From Bacillota bacterium (lineage in GTDB: Bacteria; Bacillota; Clostridia; Acetivibrionales; DTU013): a stretch of DNA of 64,000 nucleotides. The stretch covers positions 8,422 through 72,421 of the forward strand of contig JAEWQC010000006.1 of NCBI GenBank assembly GCA_023399355.1, given 5' to 3'. The position numbers and the translations under genes were made by a program. The notes below the pieces were generated by a model that was given only the letters and a program-made list of their open reading frames with translations, had not been told where the DNA came from and did not search any database. Of the stretch, positions 24,259 to 64,000 are shown in pieces (within the stretch, counting starts at the first letter, position 1; every line of letters starts with the position of its first letter).

Positions 24259-24291
24259 CATTTGCATGGACAATCAGGAAAGGTTGATTCT

Positions 24292-27372: not shown

Positions 27373-27373
27373 A

Positions 27374-49067: not shown

Positions 49068-49096
49068 TTGACATTTGACTTGGCGAAGATTATAAT
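49068..49096 (+). promoter_or_regulatory. perfect sigma-A/sigma-70 consensus promoter (TTGACA-17 nt-TATAAT)
   Basis: TTGACA at 49068-73, a 17-nt spacer TTTGACTTGGCGAAGAT, and TATAAT at 49091-96. It points toward loaP, whose ATG is at 49600. Confidence 0.55.
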
Positions 49097-49325
49097 ATAA
49101 ATCATCACATATTTTCCAATAATATGATGGTTTATGCACAAAAATGAAAGAAAAGTCTAGTAATCGTTTAAAAGCCAGATTAAGTGGAAACTCTCATAAA
49201 GAAGCTAAAAGAGCAGGATAGATGATGTTTCGATATATTGGTGGATTGATGAGAACATATAGCAATTATTGTGTATCTCATTTTTTGAAGGAAAGAAATT
49301 ACTCAAAAAAATTGTTATATAGTAA

Positions 49326-49506
49326 AAGTACTTATCGGCGGTTAATCTCTGGCGGGTCACGTTAATCGCTGATAAGTATTATATGATAAAAAATCGATTC
49401 AACCTACTATTTAGAATATGTCAGATGACGAAGATTTGTCGTTGGCTGATTTCAAGTACTTATTGGAAGTTGGGTGGCGGGTCGCTTGATGGAAGATAAG
49501 GATTAT
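49326..49506 (+). promoter_or_regulatory. duplicated ~55-nt hairpin element in the loaP leader
   Basis: Copy 1 (49326-49385) is AAGTACTTATCGGCGGTTAATCTCTGGCGGGTCACGTTAATCGCTGATAAGTATTAT. Its arms AGTACTTATCGGCG and CGCTGATAAGTATT form 14 bp including two G-U pairs. Copy 2 (49454-49506) is AAGTACTTATTGGAAGTTGGGTGGCGGGTCGCTTGATGGAAGATAAGGATTAT. Both copies share the apical TGGCGGGTC(A/G)C. Confidence 0.45.
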
Positions 49507-49599
49507 ACAGAGGTTAACCGCTAGTGTGCCAATTGGAAAAGTATGGCAGATAAAAGGGCGGAGCTGTATCTTGGCAGCATAGGCAGTGGAGGGGAACCA

Positions 49600-50148
49600 A
49601 TGTCTTTCTGGTATATATTTTGGGTCTTGACGGGTCATGAGAGAAAAATTGAAAACAGGATACAGAGTCAGTTGTGTAATGAGGACATCGTACCTTTTAT
49701 TCCCATGAGGGAAGTACTTTTTAAAAGAGCCGGTAAGGTGAAGAAAGAACTTAATATTGCGTTTCCGGGATACTTGTTTATCGAATCAGATTTGGAAAGC
49801 GTAGAGTTTTTACAACGCACACATCATTTTGTGAGAATATCAAAGGACATCATCGGGATCTTAAAATACAGTAATTCAAATGAGATTGCTGTCAGAGAAG
49901 AAGAGCGTGCAGCATTCTTGAGCTTATGTAATGTTAATCATTGTGTTGAGTCCTCAATGGGCTTTATTGAAGGAGATAAGTTTTACATTGAAAGCGGTCC
50001 TTTGGTTGGTATGGAAAACATTATAAAGGAGATTAACAGAAAAAAGATGGAAGCTTCTTTTGATATGGAGTTTCTGGGCGGAACAAGGCGGTTCACCGTA
50101 GGGCTTGAGTTATTGAGAAAAATAGAAATGGACAGTTCGATAATATAG
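49600..50148 (+). CDS. loaP: LoaP-type NusG paralog (processive antiterminator associated with polyketide clusters)
   Basis: ORF 49543-50148; ATG 49600 lies 5 nt after GGAGGGG. The NGN-like N-terminus is FWYIFWVLTGHERKIENRI...AFPGYLFIES. The KOW-like C-terminus is GDKFYIESGPLVGMENIIKEINRKK. The 182-aa protein lies directly upstream of an NRPS/PKS cluster. Confidence 0.7.
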   Translation: MSFWYIFWVLTGHERKIENRIQSQLCNEDIVPFIPMREVLFKRAGKVKKELNIAFPGYLFIESDLESVEFLQRTHHFVRISKDIIGILKYSNSNEIAVREEERAAFLSLCNVNHCVESSMGFIEGDKFYIESGPLVGMENIIKEINRKKMEASFDMEFLGGTRRFTVGLELLRKIEMDSSII

Positions 50149-50441
50149 ATAGGTGCTTGATGTGGAGAGTGTGCAATTTGGTGATTTCACAGTATATATT
50201 ATCAAAAATTAATGCAAATACAATTCTATGTCAATGTGAAATTCAAAATTTTAAATCTATCACACGAAAAACTTTGGATATATCGTGTGCAGCACCTATC
50301 AATCTACACACAAATTTACCATTAATGGTTGGCTTGAGTCATTCGCTGAGGGAAAAAGATATCAATTTTTTAATTTTACACTAAAGTAGCGATGTAAGAG
50401 TAATAATGGAGTTGTCGCGGGATGGCAGCACTGTGTAAAAG

Positions 50442-52010
50442 GTGAGTGAGAATATTATGAAAAACACATATGAGATCATTAATAACACGGAATATCCATA
50501 TGATCATTCAAAAACAGTGATTGACTATTTTGATCAGCAAGCTATGGAACATCCGGAAAATAAAGCTTTATATTTTTTGAAGGATTATATGACATATGGT
50601 GCCTTCCGGCAAAAAGTAAATCAACTTGCTAATTATTTGATCAGCTTGAATTTAAAGAATGCAGTTATTGGTGTTTTAATGGACAAATCATTTGATATGA
50701 TGATCGCCATATACGGTATACTGAAATCAGGTAACATATATATGCCGATTTCTCAGGATTATCCGGATCAAAGAATTTTATTTGTCTTAGAGGACAGTAA
50801 TGCTGCCATCGTTATCGTAAACAAAGATTCCTGCATACAATTAAGTAACATAAAATCGAACGTAAATTATTTAGATATTGAATATGAAAAGATCCAGGTT
50901 CAAAGCAATGAATGCAAAGCTCGTTGCCTTCCAAATGATTTGGCATATATTATTTATACATCAGGTACTACCGGCAATCCAAAAGGTGTTATGGTAGCCC
51001 ATCATTCTTTAATGAATCGCTTAAATTGGATGCAGCATACATACCGATTAACTGAAAATGATGTATTATTGCAAAAAACGTCGATATCGTTTGATGTTTC
51101 TTTATGGGAATTATTTTGGTGGCCTATGGCAGGAGCAAGTTTGTGTCTGCTTGCAAAAGGGCTTGAAAAATTTCCAATGGCATTAACTGAAATAATAGAA
51201 AAGTTTTCAATCTCAGTCATTCATTTTTGCCCTTCTTTGCTTAATTCGTTTTTAAATTATGTTATTGAAAACAAGAAAGAAGAATCAGTTAAATCGATAA
51301 GGCAAGTTATTTGCAGTGGCGAAGAATTACTCAAGTCGCATGTGGAGAAATTCAAGACAAGCTTGTATTTCAATAATAATACGCAGCTTGCAAATTTATA
51401 TGGGCCGACTGAGGCGACTATCGATGTCACTTTTTATAACTGCGATTTTACATTTATTCCGAACAAAATACCTATTGGCAAGCCCATCCATAATACTAGG
51501 GTTTATGTCATCGGGGACAATGATAAATTGATGCCCATTGGTGAAGAAGGTGAATTGTGTCTTTCGGGAGTTTGCCTGGCAAAAGGATACATAAATAATA
51601 AGGAATTAACTGAAAAACAATTTGTCTTATCTGGCATTGTAAAAGATACGTATTATAAAACGGGTGATTTGGTTAAGCTATTGCCTGATATGAATTTGGT
51701 ATTTCTTGGAAGAATAGATGAACAAGTAAAAATCAGGGGTTACAGGATTGAACTTGGAGAAATAGAAACTATTTTGGGAAAATACAATGGAATTCATGAA
51801 TGTTGTGTCATTCACAAAAAGGTTGATGATCTTAATTATTTAGTGGCATTTATAGTGGCAGATGAAAAATTGGACGAGAAAAGTTTGAGAGAATATGTAC
51901 ATCAATTTTTACCATACTATTGTGTTCCTAATAAGTATATTTATGTTGATAAACTGCCTGTGAATATGAGTGGAAAAGCTGATAAAAAGGCATTGCTCTC
52001 TATGATATAA
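50442..52010 (+). CDS. stand-alone adenylation enzyme (NRPS A domain; hand-derived specificity code resembles Ser)
   Basis: Core motifs: YTSGTTGNPKGV (A3), FDVSLWE (A4), NLYGPTEAT (A5), YKTGDL (A7), GRIDEQVKIRGYRIELGEIE (A8), NMSGKADKK (A10). The start may be ATG 50457. No C or T domain is present. Confidence 0.85.
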   Translation: MSENIMKNTYEIINNTEYPYDHSKTVIDYFDQQAMEHPENKALYFLKDYMTYGAFRQKVNQLANYLISLNLKNAVIGVLMDKSFDMMIAIYGILKSGNIYMPISQDYPDQRILFVLEDSNAAIVIVNKDSCIQLSNIKSNVNYLDIEYEKIQVQSNECKARCLPNDLAYIIYTSGTTGNPKGVMVAHHSLMNRLNWMQHTYRLTENDVLLQKTSISFDVSLWELFWWPMAGASLCLLAKGLEKFPMALTEIIEKFSISVIHFCPSLLNSFLNYVIENKKEESVKSIRQVICSGEELLKSHVEKFKTSLYFNNNTQLANLYGPTEATIDVTFYNCDFTFIPNKIPIGKPIHNTRVYVIGDNDKLMPIGEEGELCLSGVCLAKGYINNKELTEKQFVLSGIVKDTYYKTGDLVKLLPDMNLVFLGRIDEQVKIRGYRIELGEIETILGKYNGIHECCVIHKKVDDLNYLVAFIVADEKLDEKSLREYVHQFLPYYCVPNKYIYVDKLPVNMSGKADKKALLSMI

Positions 52011-52037
52011 ACAGACTAATAAGTGCGGGGATGTTTC

Positions 52038-52985
52038 ATGAATATTTCTCTTGTTTACCCGGGAGTCGGGTCGCAATATACCGGCATGGGTAAAGCGCAT
52101 TATGATCGGTTTAATATAGTCCGGGATACTTTTGATGAAGTGAGTGAGATTGCTAAAACCAATATAGCTACTATTTGTTTTGATAATGCTCGGAAAGAAG
52201 ACTTAAATATTCTTGCAAATGCCCAAATATGCATATTCACATTAAGTATTGCTTATCATAGATTATTGAATTTATATTTATCGATATCTCCCCGTTTTTG
52301 TTGCGGTTATAGTCTTGGAGAATATTCTGCTTTGTGCAGCTCAGGCGCGCTCAGTTTACATGACGCAGTAAAGCTAATAGAGTTGCGCTCAAAAATATTA
52401 CAGAAGATAACAGATTTAAAAATTGGAAGTATGCTCTGGATCGTTGAACTAGATGTAAATATGACGGAACAAATTTGTAAAGACTTGCGTGATGACGGAT
52501 ATTACATATATGTTTCAGGATACAATTCGCAAAAACAAACTGCCGTTTCAGGAGATAATACCTCAATAAAAAAAGCGATAGAGTTATTTGAGGAATTTGG
52601 TGCGTTGGTTATTCCTTTGGATTTATCGGGTCCATATCACTGTTCATTAATGCATGAAGCATTTGAATATATGAAAGACGTAACAGAAAAATATACATTT
52701 AAAAAATTATCGGATCCGGTCATAGCCAATTGGAATGCGTGTTTATATAAGGATGGACAATACTCTCAATACCTGATGAATCAATTGGTTCACCCCATAT
52801 ATTGGATGCAGACCATACAGAAGATATACAGCAGCAATCCGGATTTAATAATTGAGGTGGGACCTAAAGAAGTATTAACATATATTTCAAAAAAGAACTA
52901 TGCAGACGTGCATGCTTTATCAATAGATAAAATAGAAAATTTTGAGAGAATATGTGATCTTTGTGAAAATAATTGTATGCATTAA
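52038..52985 (+). CDS. discrete acyltransferase (FabD-like malonyl-CoA:ACP transacylase; trans-AT candidate)
   Basis: ORF 52023-52985; start ATG 52038. LVYPGVGSQYTGMG, active-site GYSLGEYSAL (GxSxG), and SGPYHCSLM. Confidence 0.8.
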   Translation: MNISLVYPGVGSQYTGMGKAHYDRFNIVRDTFDEVSEIAKTNIATICFDNARKEDLNILANAQICIFTLSIAYHRLLNLYLSISPRFCCGYSLGEYSALCSSGALSLHDAVKLIELRSKILQKITDLKIGSMLWIVELDVNMTEQICKDLRDDGYYIYVSGYNSQKQTAVSGDNTSIKKAIELFEEFGALVIPLDLSGPYHCSLMHEAFEYMKDVTEKYTFKKLSDPVIANWNACLYKDGQYSQYLMNQLVHPIYWMQTIQKIYSSNPDLIIEVGPKEVLTYISKKNYADVHALSIDKIENFERICDLCENNCMH

Positions 52986-53703
52986 GGGAATTGCTGTTTC
53001 TAAAATTAGTAAAAATGATAGTGATGATGAGTACAAAGTAGGCACAAAAGATATGTATGCTTTGAAAACAGCATTGGCATTAAAAGAAAGATATCCTTTA
53101 GTTATAGAAGTTATTTGTATGGCTCCTCACTCTTTATGTGATATTTTAAAAAGTCTATATATTTATGATATAAATAAGATTTATTTAGCAGCGGATAGCT
53201 TGTTTGCCGGCGCTGATACGTTTGCCACATCATTTGTCCTGCATAAGATGATAGAGAAAATAGGAATGGCAGATATCATATTATGCGGCAAGTCCAGTGA
53301 TGACAGCGGAACGGCGCAAATTGGTCCAAGTTTAGCTGAACGATTGAAATATGAGCTTATCAACAATATATCATCAATTGAAATCGATGGACATCATATT
53401 AAATGCGAAAGTAGTTCGGAAAAAATAAAATATATGATTGAAACAGAGCAATCAATAGTTGGCACAATTGATTGCCCACCTATTGATAGCACATACCCAT
53501 CGTTGAGAAATATTCTCGGACAAAAGAAAGATGTTACTATATTTAGTGCAAATGATTTAGGAATATCAATAAATCAGATACAATCAAAGACAAAAGTAGT
53601 AAAGTTATTTTCTTATGAAAAATCTGAAATCGGTGAGTTCATTACAGGAGATATTTCTGATATGGCAATAAAGTTTATTGATATTATTAAGTTATACAAT
53701 TAA
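52963..53703 (+). CDS. etfB: electron transfer flavoprotein beta subunit (EtfB-like)
   Basis: ORF 52942-53703; GTG 52963 gives VKIIVCIKGIA.... DMYALKTALALKE, GADTFATSFVLHKMI and DDSGTAQIGPSLAERL match the EtfB pattern. It overlaps the AT stop by 23 nt. Confidence 0.75.
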   Translation: MKIIVCIKGIAVSKISKNDSDDEYKVGTKDMYALKTALALKERYPLVIEVICMAPHSLCDILKSLYIYDINKIYLAADSLFAGADTFATSFVLHKMIEKIGMADIILCGKSSDDSGTAQIGPSLAERLKYELINNISSIEIDGHHIKCESSSEKIKYMIETEQSIVGTIDCPPIDSTYPSLRNILGQKKDVTIFSANDLGISINQIQSKTKVVKLFSYEKSEIGEFITGDISDMAIKFIDIIKLYN

Positions 53704-53708
53704 CCGTT

Positions 53709-54692
53709 ATGCAGCAAGAAGTAAGCATGTCATTTAAGAATGCAAGGGTTTGGGTATTTGGAGAACATGCCGATGGTGTGTTGTCCGGCATTTCACATCA
53801 GCTTTTAGGCATTGCATGCAAGCTTGCAAAAAAAATAGAATCAAAAATTATTATTGTATTGGTTGAATCAAATGAGACAATACATCGAGAGTGTATAGGT
53901 TATGGAGCAGACTATGTTATCAATGTATCTTCATATACCAATATTGATATTTTAGTTGACCTTGCTGACAAAATGCGGTTGATTGAAGAACCGGATATAG
54001 TTATATGCGGATCTACTGAATGGGGGATAAATCTTGCTCCAAGATTAGCTGTAAAATTAGGTGCAGGTTTGACGGCACATTGTGTCAACCTTGAGATATG
54101 CAGTGAAACTGGTCGTTTATTACAGACGCGGCCTACATCCTTTAATAATTTATTTGCGACAATTATCTCCACAAGTAAAATACAAATGGCGACTATAAAA
54201 CCAAATCTGTTTTCTCCCAGTATTATTGATCAAAATAAAAAAGGACAGGTTATAGAATATCAGTCTTCGGAGTTTAAAAATGGTTACACTCTGCAAAAAA
54301 TTATCCAATGTATTGAAGAGAATGCTGCGGATACTAACAGAATCATAATAGGAGTTGGAAATGGTATAGTAGATTATCAGGCATTTAAACTGGTTGAGTC
54401 TTTCGCCAATCTTATTCATGCGCCTATCTATGGATCACGGGAAGCTGTTGCTAAAGGATTGGTCGGGTTTGATCGACAGATTGGCATTACTGGTAAAACA
54501 ATTAATCCGAAATTATATATTGCAATAGGGATATCCGGCTCGCATAACCATTTGCTCGGGATTTCAAAAACTACGAAAATTGTTGCTATAAACACAGACA
54601 TTGGATCAGAAATGATAAAAGCAGCCAATTATAAAATTATATCGGATGCAAAGGATTTTCTTAAATTGATCCTTCAAAAAATTGTCGTTTAA
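53709..54692 (+). CDS. etfA: electron transfer flavoprotein alpha subunit (EtfA-like)
   Basis: 327 aa; the start may be ATG 53727. VWVFGEH..., and the C-terminal FAD region PKLYIAIGISGSHNHLLGISKTTKIVAINTDIGSEMIKAANYKIISD. Confidence 0.75.
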   Translation: MQQEVSMSFKNARVWVFGEHADGVLSGISHQLLGIACKLAKKIESKIIIVLVESNETIHRECIGYGADYVINVSSYTNIDILVDLADKMRLIEEPDIVICGSTEWGINLAPRLAVKLGAGLTAHCVNLEICSETGRLLQTRPTSFNNLFATIISTSKIQMATIKPNLFSPSIIDQNKKGQVIEYQSSEFKNGYTLQKIIQCIEENAADTNRIIIGVGNGIVDYQAFKLVESFANLIHAPIYGSREAVAKGLVGFDRQIGITGKTINPKLYIAIGISGSHNHLLGISKTTKIVAINTDIGSEMIKAANYKIISDAKDFLKLILQKIVV

Positions 54693-54718
54693 ATATAATA
54701 AAACAATACGAATAAAGA

Positions 54719-55573
54719 GTGATGAATAACATGGAATATAGTATTATCGAGATAGTACTGCGTTTTAATGGGAAATATTCACCAGGATATCAATATACTC
54801 CTGCTGAAAAAAACTCTTTACCGGTAATTTTACTTTGTCATGGAAATTATCAGGAAGGAAAGGATTCGAGAATTATACTGTCTATAGCAGAAAATTTAAC
54901 TAAAAAGGGTTTTATTGTAGTGACATTTGATAACCTTTGTTATAATAAAGCATGGAAACCCGATGATGGTGAAATTCACAGTTCTGAAGAAATTGATATG
55001 CGATGGGCGGCATTTGCTGCTATTACATATATCCGAAATAATTACATTGAAAAGAAAATAATTGTTATCGGACATTCTATGGGGGCTTCAATTGCGCTAT
55101 CAGTCAGTGCTTTGAGTGATTATATCAATGAAACTATTGCAATATCTCCAACAAGAATATCCGCATTTATTTTTGATGATAATGAATTAAATGATTTTTG
55201 GATGCAAAATAAAGACATTATTGAAACAAAAATTGATAAAAACGTTACGCGTTCAATTCGTTTAGATATGATGGCGGAAAATTACATCCCCTTTTTAAAT
55301 AAAAAGAGAACTCTATTTATCTGTGGATATAAAGAACGATATTATAATTATAAAAAATGGATTAAATCCCTGGCAGAGTCAATAGGAGAAAGTTGTGAAT
55401 CAATAATCATTCCCAATGCAGATCATTATTTTGGAATAACTCCCGGCAATGAAAATCAGGAAGTTTTTAACAATTTTATGAATAGTATATTTACATGGAT
55501 AAATAAAAAATACGGAGAGATTAATATAAACCTGGTGAATGAACAAAAGACTGTGAATGAAACTTTGAAATGA
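54719..55573 (+). CDS. alpha/beta-fold hydrolase
   Basis: 284 aa. LLCHGNY..., nucleophile elbow IGHSMGASIAL, and a late NADHYF (His). Confidence 0.7.
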   Translation: MMNNMEYSIIEIVLRFNGKYSPGYQYTPAEKNSLPVILLCHGNYQEGKDSRIILSIAENLTKKGFIVVTFDNLCYNKAWKPDDGEIHSSEEIDMRWAAFAAITYIRNNYIEKKIIVIGHSMGASIALSVSALSDYINETIAISPTRISAFIFDDNELNDFWMQNKDIIETKIDKNVTRSIRLDMMAENYIPFLNKKRTLFICGYKERYYNYKKWIKSLAESIGESCESIIIPNADHYFGITPGNENQEVFNNFMNSIFTWINKKYGEININLVNEQKTVNETLK

Positions 55574-55649
55574 TATAAAACGATACAATGTCTGCAGCGG
55601 GATTTATTGCTATGTGCAAAGACTCTCTTGAGCTTCGGAGAATTATGTT

Positions 55650-56264
55650 ATGAATTGTTTTATATGCATATCCGGACTTGATGGCTCGGGTAAAACGACA
55701 CAATGCAAACTATTGTGTGAGTATCTATTGCAAGAAGATCCGATATATTATATTTTTGGAAACATAGAAGATAACAAGTACGTAAATAGAGCAACGATAA
55801 ACTACTTGAAAAAAACGAATTTGTTTTTAAACAATACGCAGAAACATCTTATCAAGTCGGCATTTCACATGTATTTTGACATTGAGCAGCTTACTCATAA
55901 TAAGTTCTATCATGACAGAATCGTAATTATGGACAGATATGTGGAAACGATATATGCACATGCCCAATTATATGGTTTAGAGCCGGAAATTATTAGTGAT
56001 ATCTTTAAAGATATATATATCAGACCTGATTTTTATTTATTTCTGGATCTTGACCCCGAAATATGTTACAAAAGGGTATTACAGAGAGGGAAAGCGGTCA
56101 GTACACATGAAGAATTATTCAATTTGATTGAACTGCATGAATTATATAAAAGTACAGTTAAGGAATTAGGTATAAAACTAATTGATGCGGACAGAACTCC
56201 TTCTGAAATACATCAAAGCATTGTTTCACATCTAAAGTTAAATAACACTGGAGAACTACGATAA
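55650..56264 (+). CDS. thymidylate-kinase-like P-loop (d)NMP kinase family protein
   Basis: 204 aa. ISGLDGSGKTTQCKLL (P-loop as in dTMP kinase), MDRYVETIYAHAQ (DRY-type motif) and a lid-like QRGKAVSTHE. Confidence 0.6.
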   Translation: MNCFICISGLDGSGKTTQCKLLCEYLLQEDPIYYIFGNIEDNKYVNRATINYLKKTNLFLNNTQKHLIKSAFHMYFDIEQLTHNKFYHDRIVIMDRYVETIYAHAQLYGLEPEIISDIFKDIYIRPDFYLFLDLDPEICYKRVLQRGKAVSTHEELFNLIELHELYKSTVKELGIKLIDADRTPSEIHQSIVSHLKLNNTGELR

Positions 56265-56376
56265 TACGGTGCTGTATCTGGTCAAACCGAATGCTATTTT
56301 CCGCCGTGCAAACTGCCCACTCGTTTTATCATTGTATAGAAATCAATGAAAATATACCATAATTTGGAGGGTAACT

Positions 56377-56613
56377 ATGTTGGAGAAAAGGATTCTGGAA
56401 ACAATAAAAGATAATCTTGAAATTAAAGTCGACCGCGATTTGGTGCCTGAAGACAATATTGAAGACTTGGGCATTGATTCCATAACCTTCATGGATGTTA
56501 TTGTCGGCTTGGAAGATGAATTCAACATTGAAATAGATGACGATAGACTTTTCTTTCCAAAAGGGAAAAAGCTGGAGTATATTATTAAAATGATAATGGA
56601 TACCATGGCTTAG
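56377..56613 (+). CDS. discrete acyl/peptidyl carrier protein 1
   Basis: 78 aa; GGAGGG RBS. LGIDSITFMDVIVGLEDEF (DSI phosphopantetheine site). Confidence 0.8.
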   Translation: MLEKRILETIKDNLEIKVDRDLVPEDNIEDLGIDSITFMDVIVGLEDEFNIEIDDDRLFFPKGKKLEYIIKMIMDTMA

Positions 56614-56805
56614 GCCATAGTATTGTTAGATGGCCGGCTATTATTGCCAGTACATTCTCTGCAAATACTATTTTATGGAGATGATTCTTATGAAAACCAA
56701 CTAAAAAGGGTCTGCTCGTCATAGTTTCGACTGAAGATGTGAGATACTGTGAAAACATGAATAAATCAGAGAAATTCCAAGGCTATTTAAGGAGGTAAAT
56801 AATTC

Positions 56806-57828
56806 ATGATGAAATATAGATTGGATGAGAGTAAGTTAAGGTATCAGAATTCAGAAACAATTGATAGATTTAAATATATGTTGCAACGGCTGGAACCCGA
56901 AATACTTGAATTCCTGAAGACCATACCATATGCCCTAATTAATGGTGAGGCACTGTCAGTCATGGCATACGGGGATATCGGTTATCGTACATCCATGGAT
57001 TACGATTTTTTAGTTTCGATCAAGCATTCTAAAGAGATTAAAAGTGCTTTCTTTGAGCACGGCTATGTTGAGTTTTTATATGATAAAAACGGAAACGCAA
57101 GAAAGCCAACCCGCAAAGAACAGATCATGCTTATCAATGCAAATCGCTTAACCGCATTTGAAAAGTTAACAGAGGATGGGATAAAACTTTCTTTTGATTT
57201 TAATACCGGCATTTTTTGGAGTGAATATAGAGGAAAACAAATTGATATTGAAGAGTTTGTGTCAGATGCTGAAGAAGTTCAGATCCATGGCGTCAAATTG
57301 AAAATGTTAACTGACATAAAGTGCTTTATTCAAACTTGTTTGCATCACTACATATTGATGAATTCACCTTTTCATTTGTTTGAGCCTAGAAAACTTGTGA
57401 TGACTGAATGTTGGTTTCAAGACATTTATTATCTTTATAAATCTCAGATCCATAAAAAAACGCATATGTTAGAGACTTTTATAAATGAATATGAGCTTCA
57501 AGATGAATTCTTTTATGTGCTGTATTATACCAGTGTTGTTTTCCAGGACAACGAGCTGTATAATTTTGCACAAATATTCAGAACCGAATCGGGTATGGAA
57601 AAGTTGAATCAATTTGGCCTCAGCGACAGTGAAAGAAAAACCTGGCCAATTTCATTTGAAGAAAGAATGAATCATCCCCAACTATTTAAGGTACTCAAAC
57701 CATTAATGAACGATAGAGAACTTGAAAAAATCATAAAGAATTCAACAAGGACAACTTATCGTATGGAGATGTCGACTGATTACACTTATGATCCCTACTT
57801 TTATGAAAAATCGCGGAAAGTGAAATGA
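56806..57828 (+). CDS. nucleotidyltransferase-family protein (NTP_transf_5-like)
   Basis: 340 aa; AGGAGG RBS. LINGEALSVMAYGDIGYRTSMDYDFLVSIKHSKEIKSAFFEHGY fits the G..L......R...D.D.LV pattern of the uncharacterised nucleotidyltransferase family. Confidence 0.5.
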   Translation: MMKYRLDESKLRYQNSETIDRFKYMLQRLEPEILEFLKTIPYALINGEALSVMAYGDIGYRTSMDYDFLVSIKHSKEIKSAFFEHGYVEFLYDKNGNARKPTRKEQIMLINANRLTAFEKLTEDGIKLSFDFNTGIFWSEYRGKQIDIEEFVSDAEEVQIHGVKLKMLTDIKCFIQTCLHHYILMNSPFHLFEPRKLVMTECWFQDIYYLYKSQIHKKTHMLETFINEYELQDEFFYVLYYTSVVFQDNELYNFAQIFRTESGMEKLNQFGLSDSERKTWPISFEERMNHPQLFKVLKPLMNDRELEKIIKNSTRTTYRMEMSTDYTYDPYFYEKSRKVK

Positions 57829-57950
57829 ATACTATAATTTCCGTTGAAGAAATTGATATTTTATAGTCTTTTAGAGGCGGGCAGGTTTTCCTGAAATGAG
57901 ATAAATGGCGGTCGGCACAAAAAATTACAATATATTAAAGGGGATGTATT

Positions 57951-58217
57951 ATGATTAATCAAAACAACAGTAAAATAAAAAGTATACTAAAAAACTACAT
58001 AATGGAAGATATTTTGTTAGGAGACCGGAGTTTTGAGATCAACGATGATACTGCATTGATTAATGATAACATCATTGATTCTATCAATCTGATGAAATTG
58101 ATTTCCTTTATAGAGAAGAAGATGAATATTACCTATAGCCACGACGATTATTCTGTTGATAATTTTAACACCATTAATGACATCGTTGAATTAATAAATA
58201 AAAAATGTGAGGAGTAA
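57951..58217 (+). CDS. discrete carrier protein 2
   Basis: 88 aa. NIIDSINLMKLISFIEKKM (DS site). Confidence 0.75.
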   Translation: MINQNNSKIKSILKNYIMEDILLGDRSFEINDDTALINDNIIDSINLMKLISFIEKKMNITYSHDDYSVDNFNTINDIVELINKKCEE

Positions 58218-58222
58218 CGGTC

Positions 58223-58483
58223 ATGGAAAGAAAAGTTATAGGAGATACCATACTTTGTCTTATTAAAGAAGAACTGGAAATCAGCACCAGCCAAAAGGTT
58301 GAATTAACATCGAAATTATTAAGCATAGGAATAGACTCGATAGCAATGATGACATTGTTAGTCTTTATCGAAGAAAAGTTTAATTTTGCGGTAGATGAAG
58401 ATGTGCTGATTTCCAATCGTTTTGTAACAGTAAACGAAATTGTTGATTATGTTGAAGAAAAAACCAATAAGAACATTGCATGA
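58223..58483 (+). CDS. discrete carrier protein 3
   Basis: 86 aa; starts 5 nt after carrier protein 2. LSIGIDSIAMMTLLVFIEEKF. Confidence 0.75.
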   Translation: MERKVIGDTILCLIKEELEISTSQKVELTSKLLSIGIDSIAMMTLLVFIEEKFNFAVDEDVLISNRFVTVNEIVDYVEEKTNKNIA

Positions 58484-58531
58484 ACTAGGATGAAAGAATG
58501 ATATCGGTATCACACATATAGGAGAAATAAC

Positions 58532-59647
58532 GTGGACTTTAGTTTTGACAATGAATCTGTTGAATTGGCTGAACATACAAAGCAATTCATTATAAATGAA
58601 ATCAATCCTATACTGATAAATTGCAAAACATCTTTCTCTCCAAAAGCATGGAATGCGTGTTGTGACTTTGGATTGACGGGCATTACTTTTGATGCTTCAT
58701 ATGGAGGATTAGGAGTTGGCCCTGTCACAGCAGTGCTTTTGGTGGAGACATTGGGAAGACATTGTAATGACAATGGGTTCGTATTTGCATTAACAAATCA
58801 TGTTTTTGCTGCGGGAATCAGTATATATCTTTTTGGAAGACCGTCAATAAAGAGAAAATACATGGAAGGATTAATCAGTGGACAAGCAATAGGCGCTTAT
58901 GCAATTACCGAAGAAGTATCAGGATCAGACGCATTCAATATGAAAACAACGTATAGAAAAGTTGGAAGCGAATACATACTAAACGGATTCAAAACTTTTA
59001 TAACAAACGGTCCGATTGCTTCTACATTCATTGTATTCGCAAAATCTGAAGACGAAAATAAAATATCTGCATTTATTCTTGATAAAAATAATGACAAACT
59101 TAACGTCGGCATGCCTTTGAAAAAATTAGGCCTTGCATGTGCACCAATGTCTGAGATAAAAATGAAAGACTATAATATAGGTGAAGACCATATATTAGGG
59201 AAAGAAGGAGACGGAAAGTTAATATTCAACCATGTGATCCAATGGGAAAGATGTTATAACATGGCAGCTTGTTTGGGAATAATGAAAAAGAACCTTGAGG
59301 TATCCATTAGAAGGGTACTTGATAAAAAACTTGGTAAACATCAAAGCATAAGCAACAAGATCGCAGATATGAAAATAGCGATAGAACTCAGTGAATTATC
59401 TTTATATAAAAGTGCATGGTTATTAGAGAATAAAAAGTCATGCTATCTTGAATCTGCTATAGCCAAATATTACACAAGTCAAAACTACATACAAGCATGT
59501 TTGGATTTGCTTAATATTCACGGGGCGTATGGATATATTGAAGAAACAAAAATAGGTTCTGAAATAAATGACGCACTTGCATCCAGCATTTATTCCGGTA
59601 CAAATGATATATTAAAAAACATCATAGCCAGATATTGTAATATATAA
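58532..59647 (+). CDS. acyl-CoA (acyl-carrier-protein) dehydrogenase-family flavoenzyme
   Basis: 371 aa; GTG start after AGGAGA. GAYAITEEVSGSDAF, FITNGPIAS, and a C-terminal YGYIEE...DALASSIYSGTNDILKNIIAR. This is the typical ACAD three-domain layout. Confidence 0.85.
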   Translation: MDFSFDNESVELAEHTKQFIINEINPILINCKTSFSPKAWNACCDFGLTGITFDASYGGLGVGPVTAVLLVETLGRHCNDNGFVFALTNHVFAAGISIYLFGRPSIKRKYMEGLISGQAIGAYAITEEVSGSDAFNMKTTYRKVGSEYILNGFKTFITNGPIASTFIVFAKSEDENKISAFILDKNNDKLNVGMPLKKLGLACAPMSEIKMKDYNIGEDHILGKEGDGKLIFNHVIQWERCYNMAACLGIMKKNLEVSIRRVLDKKLGKHQSISNKIADMKIAIELSELSLYKSAWLLENKKSCYLESAIAKYYTSQNYIQACLDLLNIHGAYGYIEETKIGSEINDALASSIYSGTNDILKNIIARYCNI

Positions 59648-59660
59648 AAGAAGGGTATTT

Positions 59661-62600
59661 ATGATTTGTTACTATGATATGTCAGAACAGCAAAAACAAT
59701 TATATGTAGCACAAAATATAGCAGGAAACAACAATTTATATACGCTCTCTTTTACGATGACCTTTGAAGGTAACCTGGATTGCCCTTGTTTATATAAATC
59801 AATACAAAAAGTATTTGATTATAATGAAATATTAAAAAGCCGGATTGTAGACTGCGGAGATGTCGCCAAACTAACAATTGATTGCGGTGATGTAAAAATT
59901 GAATATGTTGAAAATTCTTCTGCAGATATCAATGATTATATCGCATCGGAAAATATCGACTTAAAATCAGATGCACTATATAAAATCAAACTAATAAAAA
60001 TAATGAATGATCTGCATATACTTTATTTTTCATTCCATCATATTATAATAGACGGAGACTCAATAAAACTTTTCTGCGACTCACTTAGAAAGACTTATAA
60101 TGAAGAATTAAATACAGTAAAGCAAGCAGTTAAAAACCCTCAGTTAAGTCAAAATAAAAGCTTAAGTTATTTCGATTATATATTCTACCAAGATATTTTT
60201 AGAAAAAGCAGCTTTTACCGTCAACAAAAAGAATATTTTCAAGATCAATTCAAAGATCAATATAATTTCCTTGACTTTCCGGGTATACAGGCTGAAATAC
60301 ACAATTTATATGATTCGGACTCTGAAAGTCTTTTATTTGATTTCAATACTTTTGTTGAGATGCAAAAGTATGCATTGGCAAATAAGATTCAGATAAATTC
60401 TCTATTTTTATCTGGATTAGCATTGCTGTTAAGCAGTTATTGCGACACTGACGATATTGCAATTGGTTGTATTTCAAATGGAAGAGAGAACAATATCTTA
60501 TTTAAAAATATTATTGGTTTCTTCTCCAATATAATGGCACTGCGGTTAAAGCTTGAGCCTGAAATGAATTTCAAAGACTTTATATCATATGTGAATGAAA
60601 AGATAAAAGAAGGCTTAATAAATCAGGACTATTCTTATGGTGAAATAGTGCGGGACATGAACGCATACGGAAACAGGAGCAATAAATCACTAATTCAAGT
60701 TATTTTTAACATGCAGAAATCCTATGACATAAAAAATCAATGGGACAGTATTCATAAAGTTAGTTTTAAACTTAATGAAAAAGATAAGATTAACTATGAC
60801 CTGATAATAGATATAAAATATAGTAACGAAGAAGTTATTATTAAAATAGAGTATTCGAACAAAATATTTTCAAGTTCATTAATAAAAAGGCTTGTCAAGA
60901 ATTATCAATATGTCCTGGAAAACATTTTAAAGAATCTTAATTGCCCTCTTGTTGGTGTGCCATGTGTCAATACCAGTGAACAAGAGCTTGTTTTAAAGAG
61001 CTTTAATAATACGTTTGAAGTAATAAAATATAAAAATATTTTTGATATATTCTTTGAATCTATGAATAACAATCTCGATAAGCTGGCCATTATAGATGAG
61101 GATATGCAATTTACCTATGGTGAAATAAAAAAATACATAAACAGCTTTGTTTCTGTTTTATTAAAGAATAAGACAGAAAAAGAAATTATCGCTTTATTAT
61201 TGGACCGCTCTTCTTTATATGTTATCAGCTTATTAAGTGTTTTAAGTGTCAATGCAGCCTTTGTACCCATTGATCCAAGCATACCGGAAGAAAATAAAAT
61301 AAGCATTTTGAAGGACTGCTCTGTTAAAAGGATCATCACTTCAAAATCTTATAAAGATATGGCGGAAAATTTAAAAAATGAAATAAAAGAAACCTTAATT
61401 GTATATGCGGATGATATAGATGTTCATGAAGTCGATTACAAAATGCCCATAATCGCACCTCGCGATTTAGCGTATGTAATATTCACATCCGGTACTACAG
61501 GCACCCCAAAAGGGGCGATGATAAATCATGAGAACCTTGTAAATCTTTTTTTGCTATTTAAGAAGTTTTTTAATATCAGCAATGAAAACAGAATCATACA
61601 ATTTGCCAATATCTCATTTGATGCTTCAATATGGGAAATATTTATGGCGTTATACCATGGGGCTACACTTTATATTCCTCCCAAAACCGTTATTTTAGAC
61701 ACACATGATTTTTGCAAGTATATCGACACATATCAAATCGATACAATGACTCTGCCCCCGGTATATGCAAGACAATTAGAAAATTATAAATTGAAATCAA
61801 TAAAAAAATTAATTGTAGCCGGATCTGTTTCTTTTCATGAAGATTATATTCAATGGAAAGATAAAGTTAATTTTTATAACGCTTATGGATTGACAGAAAC
61901 TACCATATGCGTAACTGTCTATAATGGAAATGATGGAACTTGTAAAAGTTATAAAAACGAGCTCTCGGTTGGCAAACCTGCTCCTAACACTAAATTATTC
62001 ATTTTGGATAAATGGAATAGAATCACGCCAATGGGAGTTACGGGGGAATTATATGTTTCAGGTAAATGTTTAAGCAATGGATATATTAACAATGAGTTTT
62101 TAACTGAAGAAAAGTTTCTTTCGAATAAATATTCTGATAACAGTAAAATGTACAGAACCGGCGATCTGGCTCTGTGGTTAGAAGATGGAAGCATTATCAT
62201 TACAGGCAGAAATGATGAACAAATAAAAATAAAAGGTATACGAATTGAATTGCCGGCTATCGAGAGTGTCTATTTAAGACATGAGAAAATTAATCAGTTT
62301 GCGGTTGTAGCATCAAAAAGAAACAACGATTACATGATAAAAGCATTCTATACTGCAGAGGACAAACTAGATGAAGAAGATTTGAGAAATTATGGGAATC
62401 AAAAATTACCCGGATATATGATCCCTCACCAGTTTATAAGATTAGAAAAGCTACCGATTTCCAATAGCGGAAAGATAGATAAAAAACATCTTCTAAGTGT
62501 AGATACAACTCAAAAACATCTTGATGGAAAAAACGTTGGCAACAAAATATGCGAATCGGTAACAGATAAGATTTATACCATTGTATCAGGCTTGACAGAA

Positions 62601-62783
62601 CACGACATTGATTTTGATGATAATTTTTTTGAAATGGGACTGGATTCATATTTGTTGATGTTTCTTAGAAATGAAATACTGGAAATTTTCAATGTTGATA
62701 TTCGAATCGTAGAATTATTTAAATACACAACAATAAATTCTCTAGGTGAATATTTGGCAAATCTTTTACAGATAACCGTCTGA
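59661..62783 (+). CDS. NRPS module C-A-T (A-domain code identical to GrsA Phe)
   Basis: 1040 aa. C domain HHIIIDGDS. A domain FTSGTTGTPKGA, FDASIWE, NAYGLTETT, YRTGDL, GRNDEQIKIKGIRIELPAIE and SNSGKIDKK. T domain FFEMGLDSYLLM. Confidence 0.9.
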   Translation: MICYYDMSEQQKQLYVAQNIAGNNNLYTLSFTMTFEGNLDCPCLYKSIQKVFDYNEILKSRIVDCGDVAKLTIDCGDVKIEYVENSSADINDYIASENIDLKSDALYKIKLIKIMNDLHILYFSFHHIIIDGDSIKLFCDSLRKTYNEELNTVKQAVKNPQLSQNKSLSYFDYIFYQDIFRKSSFYRQQKEYFQDQFKDQYNFLDFPGIQAEIHNLYDSDSESLLFDFNTFVEMQKYALANKIQINSLFLSGLALLLSSYCDTDDIAIGCISNGRENNILFKNIIGFFSNIMALRLKLEPEMNFKDFISYVNEKIKEGLINQDYSYGEIVRDMNAYGNRSNKSLIQVIFNMQKSYDIKNQWDSIHKVSFKLNEKDKINYDLIIDIKYSNEEVIIKIEYSNKIFSSSLIKRLVKNYQYVLENILKNLNCPLVGVPCVNTSEQELVLKSFNNTFEVIKYKNIFDIFFESMNNNLDKLAIIDEDMQFTYGEIKKYINSFVSVLLKNKTEKEIIALLLDRSSLYVISLLSVLSVNAAFVPIDPSIPEENKISILKDCSVKRIITSKSYKDMAENLKNEIKETLIVYADDIDVHEVDYKMPIIAPRDLAYVIFTSGTTGTPKGAMINHENLVNLFLLFKKFFNISNENRIIQFANISFDASIWEIFMALYHGATLYIPPKTVILDTHDFCKYIDTYQIDTMTLPPVYARQLENYKLKSIKKLIVAGSVSFHEDYIQWKDKVNFYNAYGLTETTICVTVYNGNDGTCKSYKNELSVGKPAPNTKLFILDKWNRITPMGVTGELYVSGKCLSNGYINNEFLTEEKFLSNKYSDNSKMYRTGDLALWLEDGSIIITGRNDEQIKIKGIRIELPAIESVYLRHEKINQFAVVASKRNNDYMIKAFYTAEDKLDEEDLRNYGNQKLPGYMIPHQFIRLEKLPISNSGKIDKKHLLSVDTTQKHLDGKNVGNKICESVTDKIYTIVSGLTEHDIDFDDNFFEMGLDSYLLMFLRNEILEIFNVDIRIVELFKYTTINSLGEYLANLLQITV

Positions 62784-62802
62784 CGGATATAAGGAGTATA
62801 AT

Positions 62803-64000
62803 ATGTACTCATATAAAGATACAGATATTGCGGTAATAGGATTGGCCGGCAGATTTCCAGGTGCGGCAGATATAGGTGAGTATTGGACTAATTTAAAAAA
62901 TGGCGTTGAATCCATATGCTTTTTTTCAGACGAAGAATTACTTGAAAATGGGATCTCTAAGGATTTATTACATAATGAAAATTATGTGAAAGCAAAAGGT
63001 TATTTGGAAAATACAGATTATTTTGATTCTCAATTCTTTCGTTATTCATTAAAAGAAGCCGGTTTAATGAATCCTCAGACAAGACTCTTTCATGAATATG
63101 TATACGCAGCACTTGAAGATGCGGGATATTCAAAAAATAATCAGGATAACAAAATCGGTTTATTTGCCGGAGCCTCTTGTGATGATACATGGAGAAAACA
63201 TTTAGGCCTTCAGGATAACGGGAATACAGCGTCTCAATTTAATAGTGAACTGCTGGTAAATAAAGATTTCATGTGCTCAAGCGTGGCATATAGGTTAGGA
63301 CTAAAGGGACCATGTTACATAATTAATACAGCCTGCTCAACATCCTTGACTGCTGTTCATATAGCTTGTCAATCAATTTTAAACAATGAGTGTGAAATGG
63401 CGGTCGCGGGAGGCGTATCCATAACTTTTCCACAAAAGAACGGATATATTTTTGAAGAAGGAATGCTAAACTCTCCGGATGGGCATTGTTGCTCATTTGA
63501 TAAAGATTCTAAAGGAACAATAGCAGGAAATGGTGTTGGAGTAATCGTAATCAAAAAATTAAGCAAAGCAATAGAAGATAAGGACACCATATACGCAATC
63601 ATTAAGGCTTCGGCAGTAAATAATGACGGGAACAATAAGCTTAATTTTACAGCGCCTAGCTTTTTGGGTATAGAGTCTGTAGTTAGGGAAGCATATAAAA
63701 AAGCAGAGATAGATCTCAAAAACGTTAAATATATTGAAATGCATGGTACCGGCACTCCTTTGGGCGATGCGGTTGAGATAGCAGCTTTAAAATCTGTTTT
63801 TGACGGAAAAGGCATCAATGAGTGCATCATTGGTTCAGTAAAAGCAAATATAGGTCATTTAGATGCTGCAGCAGGGATTGCCGGCTTTATAAAAACTGTT
63901 TTGGTGCTTTATTATAAGCAAATACCACCGGCAATTAACTTTAACTCACCCAATGATGAACTGATTGCAGAAAATGGGATATTTTCCGTAAATACCAGCT
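62803..64000 (+). CDS. polyketide synthase, N-terminal ketosynthase domain (runs off the right edge)
   Basis: Not in the ORF track because it has no stop in the window. ATG 62803 follows AAGGAG. My translation reads MYSYKDTDIAVIGLAGRFPGA...INTACSTSLTAVHIACQS...EMHGTGTPLGD...KANIGHLDAAAG, so the Cys-His-His triad is intact. Confidence 0.9.
   Translation, partial: MYSYKDTDIAVIGLAGRFPGAADIGEYWTNLKNGVESICFFSDEELLENGISKDLLHNENYVKAKGYLENTDYFDSQFFRYSLKEAGLMNPQTRLFHEYVYAALEDAGYSKNNQDNKIGLFAGASCDDTWRKHLGLQDNGNTASQFNSELLVNKDFMCSSVAYRLGLKGPCYIINTACSTSLTAVHIACQSILNNECEMAVAGGVSITFPQKNGYIFEEGMLNSPDGHCCSFDKDSKGTIAGNGVGVIVIKKLSKAIEDKDTIYAIIKASAVNNDGNNKLNFTAPSFLGIESVVREAYKKAEIDLKNVKYIEMHGTGTPLGDAVEIAALKSVFDGKGINECIIGSVKANIGHLDAAAGIAGFIKTVLVLYYKQIPPAINFNSPNDELIAENGIFSVNTS

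Follow-up and report, generated by a model that had tools for sequence, protein, structure and literature searches.

We analyzed a 64,000-nt window of DNA from a clostridial bacterium of the order Acetivibrionales (Bacillota; assembly GCA_023399355.1, contig JAEWQC010000006.1, positions 8,422 to 72,421 of the forward strand), the right-hand part of which carries a hybrid nonribosomal peptide synthetase (NRPS) and polyketide synthase (PKS) gene cluster with an unusual accessory set. Throughout, coordinates are positions in this window, and gene calls come from the open reading frame (ORF) listing together with Pfam and NCBIfam scans. On the + strand, the genes run in the order loaP, a stand-alone adenylation (A) enzyme, a discrete acyltransferase (AT), the two subunits of an electron transfer flavoprotein (ETF; EtfB, EtfA), an alpha/beta hydrolase, a P-loop kinase, the carrier protein CP1, an NTP_transf_5 nucleotidyltransferase (NTase), the carrier proteins CP2 and CP3, an enzyme of the acyl-CoA dehydrogenase fold (ACAD), the NRPS, and a PKS that begins with a ketosynthase (KS) (Table 1). 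An earlier reading made from the letters by themselves (the sequence-only reading) had proposed this order and the hybrid NRPS/PKS character of the cluster, and the scans bear out both. The same reading described co-directional genes with short or overlapping junctions; all genes are indeed co-directional, but the spacing between neighbours varies from -44 to +293 nt, and the genes for CP1 and the NTase are set off by gaps of 112, 192 and 122 nt. The low GC content that it noted was also found (27-39% per gene in the cluster vs 45-55% in the upstream DNA), and the drop from 45-55% to ~33% lies at roughly 48 kb. Judged by its domains, the region carries the front half of a compact thiotemplated assembly line behind a LoaP antiterminator, and our confidence in this anatomy is high.

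All 13 complete cluster genes are intact. The region from 50441 to 64000 shares ~90% nucleotide identity with two metagenome contigs and one Logan contig (L007, L008 and L010), the similarity beginning exactly at the A gene, and the same 13 genes, from A through PKS, stand there in identical order; the arrangement is therefore not due to chance. Relative to a ~90% identical metagenomic copy, dN/dS was 0.07-0.25 for all 13 genes, the small CP2 included, indicating that the cluster is functional and not decaying. We conclude that this gene island looks complete, is maintained by selection and came in by horizontal acquisition. A megablast search of PLSDB plasmids with the 14.5-kb region gave no match. 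The L007 copy is without loaP and has a GC content of 32%, compared with 40% in its flank. In that contig a tRNA-Ala(GGC) gene (3140-3215) and a terminator come before the cluster, which starts just downstream, at what is a typical site of island insertion.

Table 1 Features of the cluster and its head, in window coordinates
Feature	Position	Strand	Evidence and remarks
Promoter-like site, perfect sigma-70 consensus TTGACA-17-TATAAT	49068..49096	+	Consensus match; ~450 nt upstream of loaP
5' leader, predicted fold with two similar hairpins (49328-49375, 49453-49510)	49328..49510	+	Fold; UGGCGGGUC near each apex
loaP, NusG-family processive antiterminator	49543-50148	+	NF033641 149.4 bits (cutoff 125); PF02357 NGN domain
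DAHP synthase gene remnant (pseudogene fragment), 75-codon ORF	50157-50384	+	PF00793, E 5e-6; between loaP and A
Stand-alone A enzyme, predicted L-Ser	50442-52010	+	TIGR01733 395 bits; dN/dS 0.13
Discrete FabD-like AT	52023-52985	+	PF00698; best PDB match FabD 3ptw, E 5.6e-45
EtfB, ETF beta subunit	52942-53703	+	PF01012, NF040731; dN/dS 0.24
EtfA, ETF alpha subunit	53709-54692	+	PF01012, PF00766; dN/dS 0.21
Serine alpha/beta hydrolase, GHSMG	54719-55573	+	PF00561, PF12146; first gene of hydrolase-kinase-CP1-NTase cassette
Thymidylate-kinase-like P-loop kinase	55650-56264	+	PF02223, E 4.7e-21 over full profile
CP1, carrier protein, LGIDS	56377-56613	+	PF00550, E 8e-12
NTP_transf_5 NTase, pol-beta fold	56806-57828	+	PF14907 43.8 bits (cutoff 31.2)
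CP2, divergent carrier protein, IIDS	57951-58217	+	PF00550 weak, E 0.0045; attachment Ser present; dN/dS 0.07
CP3, carrier protein, IGIDS	58223-58483	+	PF00550, E 8e-10
ACAD, FAD-dependent acyl/aminoacyl-carrier-protein dehydrogenase, AnaB/PigA clade	58532-59647	+	Profile and PDB matches
NRPS module, condensation-A(Phe)-thiolation	59661-62783	+	PF00668, PF00501, PF00550; condensation motif HHIIIDG
PKS gene, 5' part, KS cut by window end	62803..64000	+	CSTS, HGTGT and NIGHL motifs intact

Core assembly line

The A code of the NRPS module, DAWTIAAICK, is the Phe code of GrsA and is unchanged in L010, L021 and L002. A codes were read by alignment to GrsA-PheA, the reference sequence of which gave back its own published code. 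The module begins with a condensation (C) domain, and a free CP2-CP3 pair always precedes this C-starting NRPS, across four different architectures (the pair is kept ahead of the NRPS in L002, L010, L017 and L021). This fits the earlier suggestion that the donor for the NRPS is built on a free carrier. The C domains of the NRPS and the PKS both have TycC as their best PDB match, which does not indicate the C subtype.

The PKS could be followed beyond the window. In a 7.7-kb Logan contig (L001) whose sequence is the same as that of the window, the protein continues to 749 aa and still shows no AT domain (no PF00698 match), and the full-length homologue in L010 (7601-12895, 1764 aa) consists of KS, a linker, a ketoreductase (KR), an acyl carrier protein (ACP) and a terminal C domain with the motif HHAIFDD. 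The homologues measure 1758-1764 aa, with one module in all relatives. Since neither the L001 extension nor the L010 homologue contains an AT, we take the PKS to be a single AT-less module and not a multimodular trans-AT synthase, with the KS-KR-ACP-C architecture that is seen in close relatives and is predicted here. The sequence-only reading had suggested a trans-AT system with its PKS modules beyond the window edge. The trans-AT part stands, in that the PKS has no cis-AT and a discrete AT is encoded, whereas the multimodular megasynthase does not: the relatives have the single module, followed by other genes (see below). A protein homologue search for the full-length PKS gave no match longer than about 1300 aa, and a scan with the PKS fragment of a genome contig set without the source genome and its close relatives gave just KS matches of 31-34%, from Mycetohabitans.

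By collinearity, the first C domain would join a unit bound to CP3 or CP2 to Phe. The KS would then extend Phe by one malonyl or aminomalonyl unit and the KR would reduce the product, giving a Phe-derived gamma-amino-beta-hydroxy (statine-like) acid, and the terminal C domain would hand the chain to an amine, most simply that of Ser on a free carrier protein.

In L010, the PKS gene is followed by genes for a pair of hydrolase-like proteins of 261 and 257 aa, a radical S-adenosylmethionine (SAM) enzyme of the HemN-like kind, a PAPS-reductase/AANH-like protein, a BtrH_N protein, a PEP-utiliser mobile domain, a 340-aa protein, a DUF362/ferredoxin protein and an acyl ligase. The conserved code of the ligase in relatives, SYAFIADVIK, has no Asp235 and marks a non-amino-acid AMP ligase. 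Among the products encoded at L009:19827-21038 and L010:15909-17816 are one of 700 aa that carries a citrate-lyase-ligase domain, one of the AANH/PAPS-reductase-like kind and a papain-like BtrH_N protein. These downstream genes hint, by analogy, at carrier-protein chemistry like that of closthioamide, possibly thioamidation: the closthioamide pathway likewise combines an AANH thioamide synthetase (CtaC) and a papain-like protein (CtaG) with free carriers, and the AANH-like, BtrH_N, ligase and radical SAM genes of the relatives lie beside free carrier proteins. As these genes were seen in relatives, outside the window, and the likeness is drawn by description, it serves as a lead. In anaerobes, CtaC homologues are reported to occur beside genes for NRPSs and PKSs (PMC6772006).

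Three cluster types

The related loci fall into three architectures. Type I (the window, L007, L008 and L010) consists of A-AT-EtfB-EtfA, then hydrolase-kinase-CP1-NTase, then CP2-CP3-ACAD-NRPS-PKS and the tailoring genes. Type II (L021 and L009) has a divergent NusG, DAHP synthase-CP2-CP3-ACAD-NRPS-PKS-261-258-..., a hydrolase-Flavin_Reduct-kinase-CP1-NTase segment and tailoring genes; within the ~34 kb visible, it has no Ser-specific A enzyme, AT or ETF. Type III (L017-L019) reads NusG-NTase-CP2-CP3-ABC-ABC-[IS110]-kinase-ACAD-NRPS-PKS-261-258. From these comparisons, CP2-CP3-(ACAD)-NRPS-PKS is the invariant core of the family; hydrolase-kinase-CP1-NTase is a cassette that moves between cluster types, occupying a different position in L009; and A-AT-EtfB-EtfA is a block of its own, present in type I and not in the visible type II.

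Traces of mobility and decay were observed in some of these loci. An IS110 transposase gene lies inside the cluster in L017-L019. A decayed relative (L002:5656-9919 and L003) has CP2-CP3-NRPS and then a PKS that is cut after the KR, with a phage integrase gene on the opposite strand 2 nt after the PKS stop codon.

Predicted serine activation, the dehydrogenase and the ETF pair

The stand-alone A enzyme, whose likely start is the ATG at 50457 after AAAGGTGAG, is predicted to activate L-serine. Its code, DVWHISLIDK, matches DVWHFSLIDK of ClbH-A1 at 9/10 positions, and the two proteins share 37% identity; the ClbH-A1 reference, from E. coli CFT073, is the serine loader of the aminomalonyl pathway of colibactin. 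In the AT, the active-site Ser, Arg and His are present. Where GHSLG is near-universal, the enzyme reads GYSLG, and in place of GQGSQ it has GVGSQ; the two changes recur in L007 and L008. It is 29.5% identical to ClbG and 28-29% to FabD of E. coli, a comparison that does not discriminate between them; with ClbG it shares two deviations from FabD, the loss of Gln11 (GQGSQ to GxGSQ) and the change of PSH to PYH before the catalytic His. The true start of EtfB is probably about 20 nt inside the called ORF. All three carriers have the Ser of the attachment motif, and among them CP2 is the nearest to ClbE (BLASTP E 3e-7, a weak match) and to an ACP of an FkbH cassette in Vallitalea pronyensis (E 2e-11).

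The ACAD matches the PigA family NF053553 with E 5e-92 and 309 bits, below the cutoff of 500, and its PDB matches are AnaB (4irn, 281 bits, ~41% identity), 6cxt (230 bits) and PigA (205 bits). Its WER motif aligns with the catalytic Glu244 of AnaB (helix G), and xSGT replaces the YEGT of enzymes of the medium-chain acyl-CoA dehydrogenase type. The protein is 26.5% identical to ClbF, and FkbI (1r2j) is not among its PDB matches below 1e-20. Members of the ACAD family share 78-84% identity, and the next relatives outside it, from Clostridia, reach <=46%, with 44% for V. pronyensis.

The V. pronyensis locus (CP058649.1, 1441275-1462414) has the order ACAD-EtfB-EtfA-(3 NodU-like carbamoyltransferases)-HADH-ACP-FkbH, where HADH stands for 3-hydroxyacyl-CoA dehydrogenase and FkbH scores 265 bits (cutoff 147). 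By its gene content, this locus, itself uncharacterised, appears to follow the four-enzyme logic of the hydroxymalonyl-ACP extender unit with an ETF pair added. It resembles the window in its ACAD, in the adjacent ETF pair and in its CP2-like ACP. It differs in having FkbH and HADH, whereas the window has a Ser-specific A enzyme and no HADH, and the ETF subunits are just 26-30% identical. The presence of an ETF pair in this cassette suggests that ETF-coupled oxidation on carrier proteins may be a general solution in anaerobes. When ClbD and the Vallitalea HADH were used as tblastn queries, no HADH was found in the cluster or in L007-L021; the sole match in the window is a host gene at 18300-19163.

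Because the Ser-specific A enzyme, the AT and the ETF travel as a block, we prefer the reading in which Ser is oxidised by the ACAD and ETF and delivered by the AT. It is plausible, and we propose tentatively, that an oxidised, aminomalonyl-type unit is made from serine by the joint work of the Ser-specific A enzyme, a carrier, the ACAD/ETF and the AT. The A enzyme would load Ser on one of the free carrier proteins CP1-3, and the ACAD would oxidise the seryl thioester towards an aminomalonyl-type unit, doing the job that is split between ZmaG and ZmaI in zwittermicin or ClbD and ClbF in colibactin biosynthesis. We assume that its first oxidation is an alpha,beta-dehydrogenation giving a tautomer of the aldehyde. 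As the lineage is anaerobic, we propose that the ETF re-oxidises the ACAD. The AT would then move the aminomalonyl-type unit, or plain malonyl, onto the ACP of the PKS.

Several points weigh against this proposal. First, the canonical aminomalonyl pathway is incomplete, since no HADH is found in the cluster or related loci, and a four-electron oxidation by one ACAD has to be assumed. Second, the ACAD is distant from ClbF, and its best-characterised relatives act on prolyl-carrier proteins. Third, the AT is as near to the housekeeping FabD as to ClbG. Fourth, the ACAD may act on a substrate other than Ser, because type II keeps CP2-CP3-ACAD without a visible Ser-specific A enzyme, AT or ETF. 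Fifth, the chemistry of the kinase and NTase (see below), which would be carried over from analogous enzymes, is the weakest part of the scheme. At last, the back half of the cluster is known from relatives and not from this genome.

Several of the same observations could be read differently, with the ACAD and ETF building the starter unit: they would desaturate an acyl or aminoacyl group on CP3 or CP2 in the manner of AnaB and PigA, and the first C domain would join the resulting enoyl or dehydro-aminoacyl unit to Phe. The AT would then be an ordinary malonyl trans-AT, and the Ser-specific A enzyme and CP1 would form a split terminal module whose Ser is the acceptor for the C-terminal C domain. 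The order CP2-CP3-ACAD-NRPS, invariant in types I, II and III, agrees with such a role, as do the AnaB/PigA affinity of the ACAD with its retained catalytic base, the type II clusters with their ACAD and no visible Ser-specific A enzyme, AT or ETF, and the AT, which keeps the Arg and His of malonyl-specific FabD. The conserved non-amino-acid AMP ligase of the relatives could load a carboxylic acid, and CP1 resembles carriers that receive beta-hydroxy acids. However, A-AT-EtfB-EtfA travel as one block, tying Ser activation to electron transfer; the Vallitalea ACAD, the nearest outside relative, sits in an extender-unit (FkbH) cassette; CP2 resembles extender-unit ACPs; and the cluster has no Pro-type A domain. 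We regard a starter role as possible but somewhat doubtful. A pyrrole or 1-pyrroline-5-carboxylate starter cassette was considered as the main model and rejected: the A codes are those of Ser and Phe, the ligase of the relatives is without Asp235, and the ACAD is not filed with such cassettes because there is no proline-type A domain.

Hydrolase-kinase-CP1-NTase cassette

The cassette opens with the hydrolase, the nucleophile motif of which is kept in L007 and L009 and which would release the product. The kinase scores 76.5 bits with TIGR00041, below the dTMP kinase equivalog cutoff of 83.25, and its best match to a thymidylate kinase (TMK) in the PDB has E 1e-10; its gene lies within a biosynthetic operon. 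Its P-loop GLDGSGKTT, its MDRY (DRY) motif and its lid RVLQRGK (RxLQR) are invariant in four homologues. In L017-L019, the stop codon of the kinase gene and the start codon of the ACAD gene are 1 nt apart, and the two genes are translationally coupled.

An AlphaFold2 model of the NTase (pLDDT 83) gave Foldseek matches to MenT1, ANT(2''), LnuA and FKRP. Residues G47, S51, D65, D67 and D131 are invariant, the catalytic Asp triad D65/D67/D131 across 20 homologues. The family is small: 20 word-sharing homologues were found in 5.8 billion proteins, and a profile search of 1.84 billion gave 239 representatives at E<=1e-30. The NTase gene adjoins a carrier protein gene in 6/6 architectures, at 34-86% identity and often with overlapping stop and start codons; homologues in loci with radical SAM and PqqD genes are 34-39% identical. 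CP1 is the carrier of the window nearest to those of the NTase-carrier-FkbH triads (BLASTP E 6e-9 with L011 and 2.5e-7 with L015).

Two such triads were observed, at L011:10001-12755 and L015:8001-10706, where a carrier protein comes directly after the NTase and is itself followed by a protein with an FkbH domain (TIGR01686, 223 and 198 bits); at L013:7107-9761 the NTase is directly followed by an A-thiolation didomain with the Thr code DFWNFGMVHK. An HPr-kinase-like P-loop protein lies upstream in each of these three loci, and every NTase locus holds either a TMK-like or an HPr-kinase-like kinase. By these domain assignments, the recurring set comprises a kinase and an NTase together with a carrier protein and the loader that supplies it with a beta-hydroxy acid (Ser, Thr or glycerate). 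The NTase-carrier-FkbH and NTase-A-thiolation gene sets, which belong to loci resembling those of peptides that are made by ribosomes and modified post-translationally (RiPPs), appear to be undescribed; literature searches on PF14907/NTP_transf_5, on FkbH with NTase and RiPP, and on ETF with biosynthetic gene clusters and anaerobes found nothing useful.

A Ser that is carrier-bound or stands at the end of the chain would have its beta-hydroxyl activated by the kinase and NTase, through phosphorylation or nucleotidylation, in preparation for elimination or phosphodiester formation. Of all the steps that we propose, this is the one that we hold least firmly, and activation of a beta-hydroxyl by this cassette, drawn by analogy, is to be considered doubtful. 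A characterised precedent is the lasso peptide pseudomycoidin (psm) system, in which the HPrK-like PsmK phosphorylates a Ser hydroxyl and the phosphate is the site of addition for PsmN, an NTP transferase that is uncharacterised and has been modelled on ANT(2'') (PMC6993621). What the two systems share is a kinase and, as its partner, an NTase of pol-beta fold whose model resembles ANT(2'') and which is uncharacterised; in psm, the hydroxyl acted on is that of a Ser side chain. In contrast, the kinase of the window is TMK-like and not HPrK-like, and a carrier and loader always adjoin the NTase here, which is not described for psm; PsmN was compared by description.

The likeness to antibiotic-modifying enzymes brings in a further possibility, in which the kinase and NTase are self-protection or pro-drug enzymes acting on a hydroxyl of the finished metabolite, like APH, ANT and Lnu, and their adjacency to a carrier is incidental. 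The best structural matches of the modelled NTase include the antibiotic O-nucleotidyltransferases ANT(2'') and LnuA, the KR and Ser would each leave a hydroxyl on the predicted product, making two at least, and PsmK and PsmN have as their substrate a peptide, finished or precursor, and not a carrier-bound unit (PMC6993621). The genomic contexts argue otherwise: the NTase is directly beside a carrier in all six architectures, each carrier has a loader of a beta-hydroxy acid, and hydrolase, kinase, CP1 and NTase move as a unit between cluster types. Self-protection is in our view quite unlikely.

The coupling of the kinase and ACAD genes in L017-L019 is counted in favor of yet another explanation, a non-redox dehydration in which the kinase phosphorylates a seryl-carrier protein and the phosphate is then lost through abstraction of the alpha-proton by the ACAD, giving a dehydroalanyl- or pyruvoyl-carrier protein as a starter or terminal unit. 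Phosphorylation of Ser followed by elimination is the established chemistry of class III and IV lanthipeptide synthetases, the catalytic base of the ACAD is kept, and eliminating enzymes of the ACAD fold exist, the 3-sulfinopropanoyl-CoA desulfinase family being among the ACAD profile matches (E 1.5e-40). On the other hand, the dedicated ETF pair is under purifying selection, which speaks for genuine electron transfer, and the Vallitalea relative sits in a redox cassette, so that we consider this explanation very unlikely.

Returning to carrier-linked activation of a hydroxyl, one may ask whether the kinase, the NTP_transf_5 protein, the carrier protein and the loader make up a previously unrecognised four-part system that is common to NRPS-PKS clusters and radical-SAM RiPP-like clusters. 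Such a system is unlikely on our present estimate. In it, a carrier-held Ser, Thr or FkbH-derived glycerate would have its hydroxyl phosphorylated or nucleotidylated, and the unit would then be eliminated to a carrier-bound dehydro unit or joined to the peptide or polyketide through a phosphodiester.

Cluster head and genomic surroundings

The promoter-like site is the sole 12/12 sigma-70 match in 47-64 kb. It is followed by a ~440-nt leader; the fold of 49310-49545 has a dG of -61.4 kcal/mol (z -2.45), and the motif UGGCGGGUC has exactly two occurrences in the window. The segment 49437-49533, which takes in the second hairpin, matches the L021 leader (1415-1509), that of a related cluster, with 83% identity over 95 nt, and the flanks are unrelated. 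loaP is the first gene of the co-directional cluster, and NusG-like genes likewise head L017 and L021; LoaP is 32% identical to the NusG-like protein of L021 and 24% to that of L017.

This head, with its structured ~440-nt leader, recalls the dfn and mln trans-AT PKS operons of Bacillus velezensis, in which loaP likewise opens, from the 5' end, a long biosynthetic operon of co-directional genes. The LoaP leaders of dfn and mln have a UNCG-type hairpin and an intrinsic terminator (PMC12691694). Here, no UNCG tetraloop of that kind was recognised in the leader fold, a scan of the leader found no + strand terminator, and Rfam over 47-64 kb gave nothing credible; moreover, the assembly line of the window has one PKS module, in contrast to the multimodular dfn and mln lines. 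The leader hairpins may be a LoaP-responsive element, a candidate that would differ from the UNCG hairpin of dfn.

Between loaP and the A gene lies the fragment of a gene for 3-deoxy-D-arabino-heptulosonate 7-phosphate (DAHP) synthase. The 75-codon ORF is 35% identical to residues 149-205 of an intact 271-aa protein that stands at the same position in L021 (1608-2423) and that, at 317 bits with TIGR01361 (cutoff 268), is a true DAHP synthase. The fragment is the mark of an earlier rearrangement at the cluster head. Because this fragment and the 95-nt leader match type II, the window copy gives the impression of a type I body to which a head resembling that of type II has been joined. We also considered DAHP synthase as a starter-unit enzyme and rejected this in favor of Phe precursor supply, as the intact protein is a true DAHP synthase and the window holds just a remnant; since the predicted product is Phe-derived, the DAHP synthase of type II makes sense as a supplier of the Phe precursor.

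Upstream of the cluster, a single ORF of 6088 aa (29039-47305) encodes many RCC1 repeats, Big_5, PKD and CARDB domains and C-terminal SLH domains, and has the highest GC content of the window (about 52-55%). We tried this ORF as an NRPS and rejected it; with its RCC1/Big_5/SLH domains it is a giant cell-surface protein, outside the cluster. Just upstream of it, at 24262-28462, a gene for a 1036-aa hybrid sensor (7TMR-DISM, HisKA, HATPase, receiver, His_kinase) overlaps that for a response regulator with a BTAD domain. Further upstream are Ptb- and Buk-like genes and Fe-S flavoproteins, and their presence indicates that the host is an anaerobic fermentative Firmicute. The radical SAM and ferredoxin-like genes downstream of the cluster core in relatives are in line with an anaerobic origin.

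Discussion

The zwittermicin (ZmaJ/H/G/I with the AT ZmaF) and colibactin (ClbH-A1/E/D/F with the AT ClbG) aminomalonyl systems resemble the cluster in having a trans-acting Ser-specific A enzyme or domain, a free ACP and an FAD-dependent oxidase of the ACAD fold. The discrete AT has the two active-site deviations of ClbG, and in all cases these parts adjoin a hybrid NRPS/PKS. The sequence comparison was made against the Clb proteins, and zwittermicin is likened by its pathway logic. However, the cluster family is without an NAD-dependent HADH (ZmaG/ClbD) and has a dedicated ETF pair, its ACAD belongs to the AnaB/PigA clade, and its AT is no nearer to ClbG than to FabD.

The dehydrogenase itself points to the prolyl-carrier-protein cassettes (AnaB/C/D of anatoxin-a; PltF/L/E, PigI/G/A and Bmp), with which it shares the ACAD clade, the catalytic Glu and xSGT. 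In those cassettes, too, the ACAD stands by free carriers and a stand-alone A enzyme that feed a PKS or NRPS. The prolyl-carrier-protein dehydrogenases have been described as O2-using oxidases. The present cluster differs in having no proline-type A enzyme and in having an ETF pair.

Neither PLSDB, nor the scan of genome contigs, nor the literature yielded a characterised cluster or paper that matches the accessory set, in agreement with the sequence-only reading, which did not recognise the combination of ETF pair, kinase, nucleotidyltransferase and three carriers from a characterised pathway. That reading did not extend to the specificities for Ser and Phe, to the kinship of the ACAD with AnaB and PigA or to the remnant of a DAHP synthase gene. 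We conclude that the cluster belongs to an orphan hybrid NRPS-PKS family. Each of its parts has a known analogue, and the combination stands outside the known families because it has no HADH, no Pro-specific A enzyme and one PKS module, and because its kinase scores below the TMK cutoff.

The cluster is one of very many orphan clusters, and its value lies in enzymology rather than in phenotype. Its most interesting aspect is the carrier-protein-linked kinase/NTase system that is common to the cluster and the RiPP-like loci. If our reading holds, this would provide the first functional context for a small NTP_transf_5 subfamily, partnered with carriers of beta-hydroxy acids in NRPS-PKS and RiPP-like loci, and the four-part system of kinase, NTase, carrier and loader would be a new thiotemplated tailoring logic. 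A second new element would be an ETF-coupled dehydrogenase of the AnaB clade that alone turns a seryl-carrier protein into an aminomalonyl-type unit in anaerobes, amounting to a route, independent of oxygen and linked to ETF, by which an extender or starter unit is derived from serine without the canonical HADH step. For the lineage, the cluster would mean a likely statine-like, Phe-derived metabolite from an anaerobe and LoaP control outside Bacillus.

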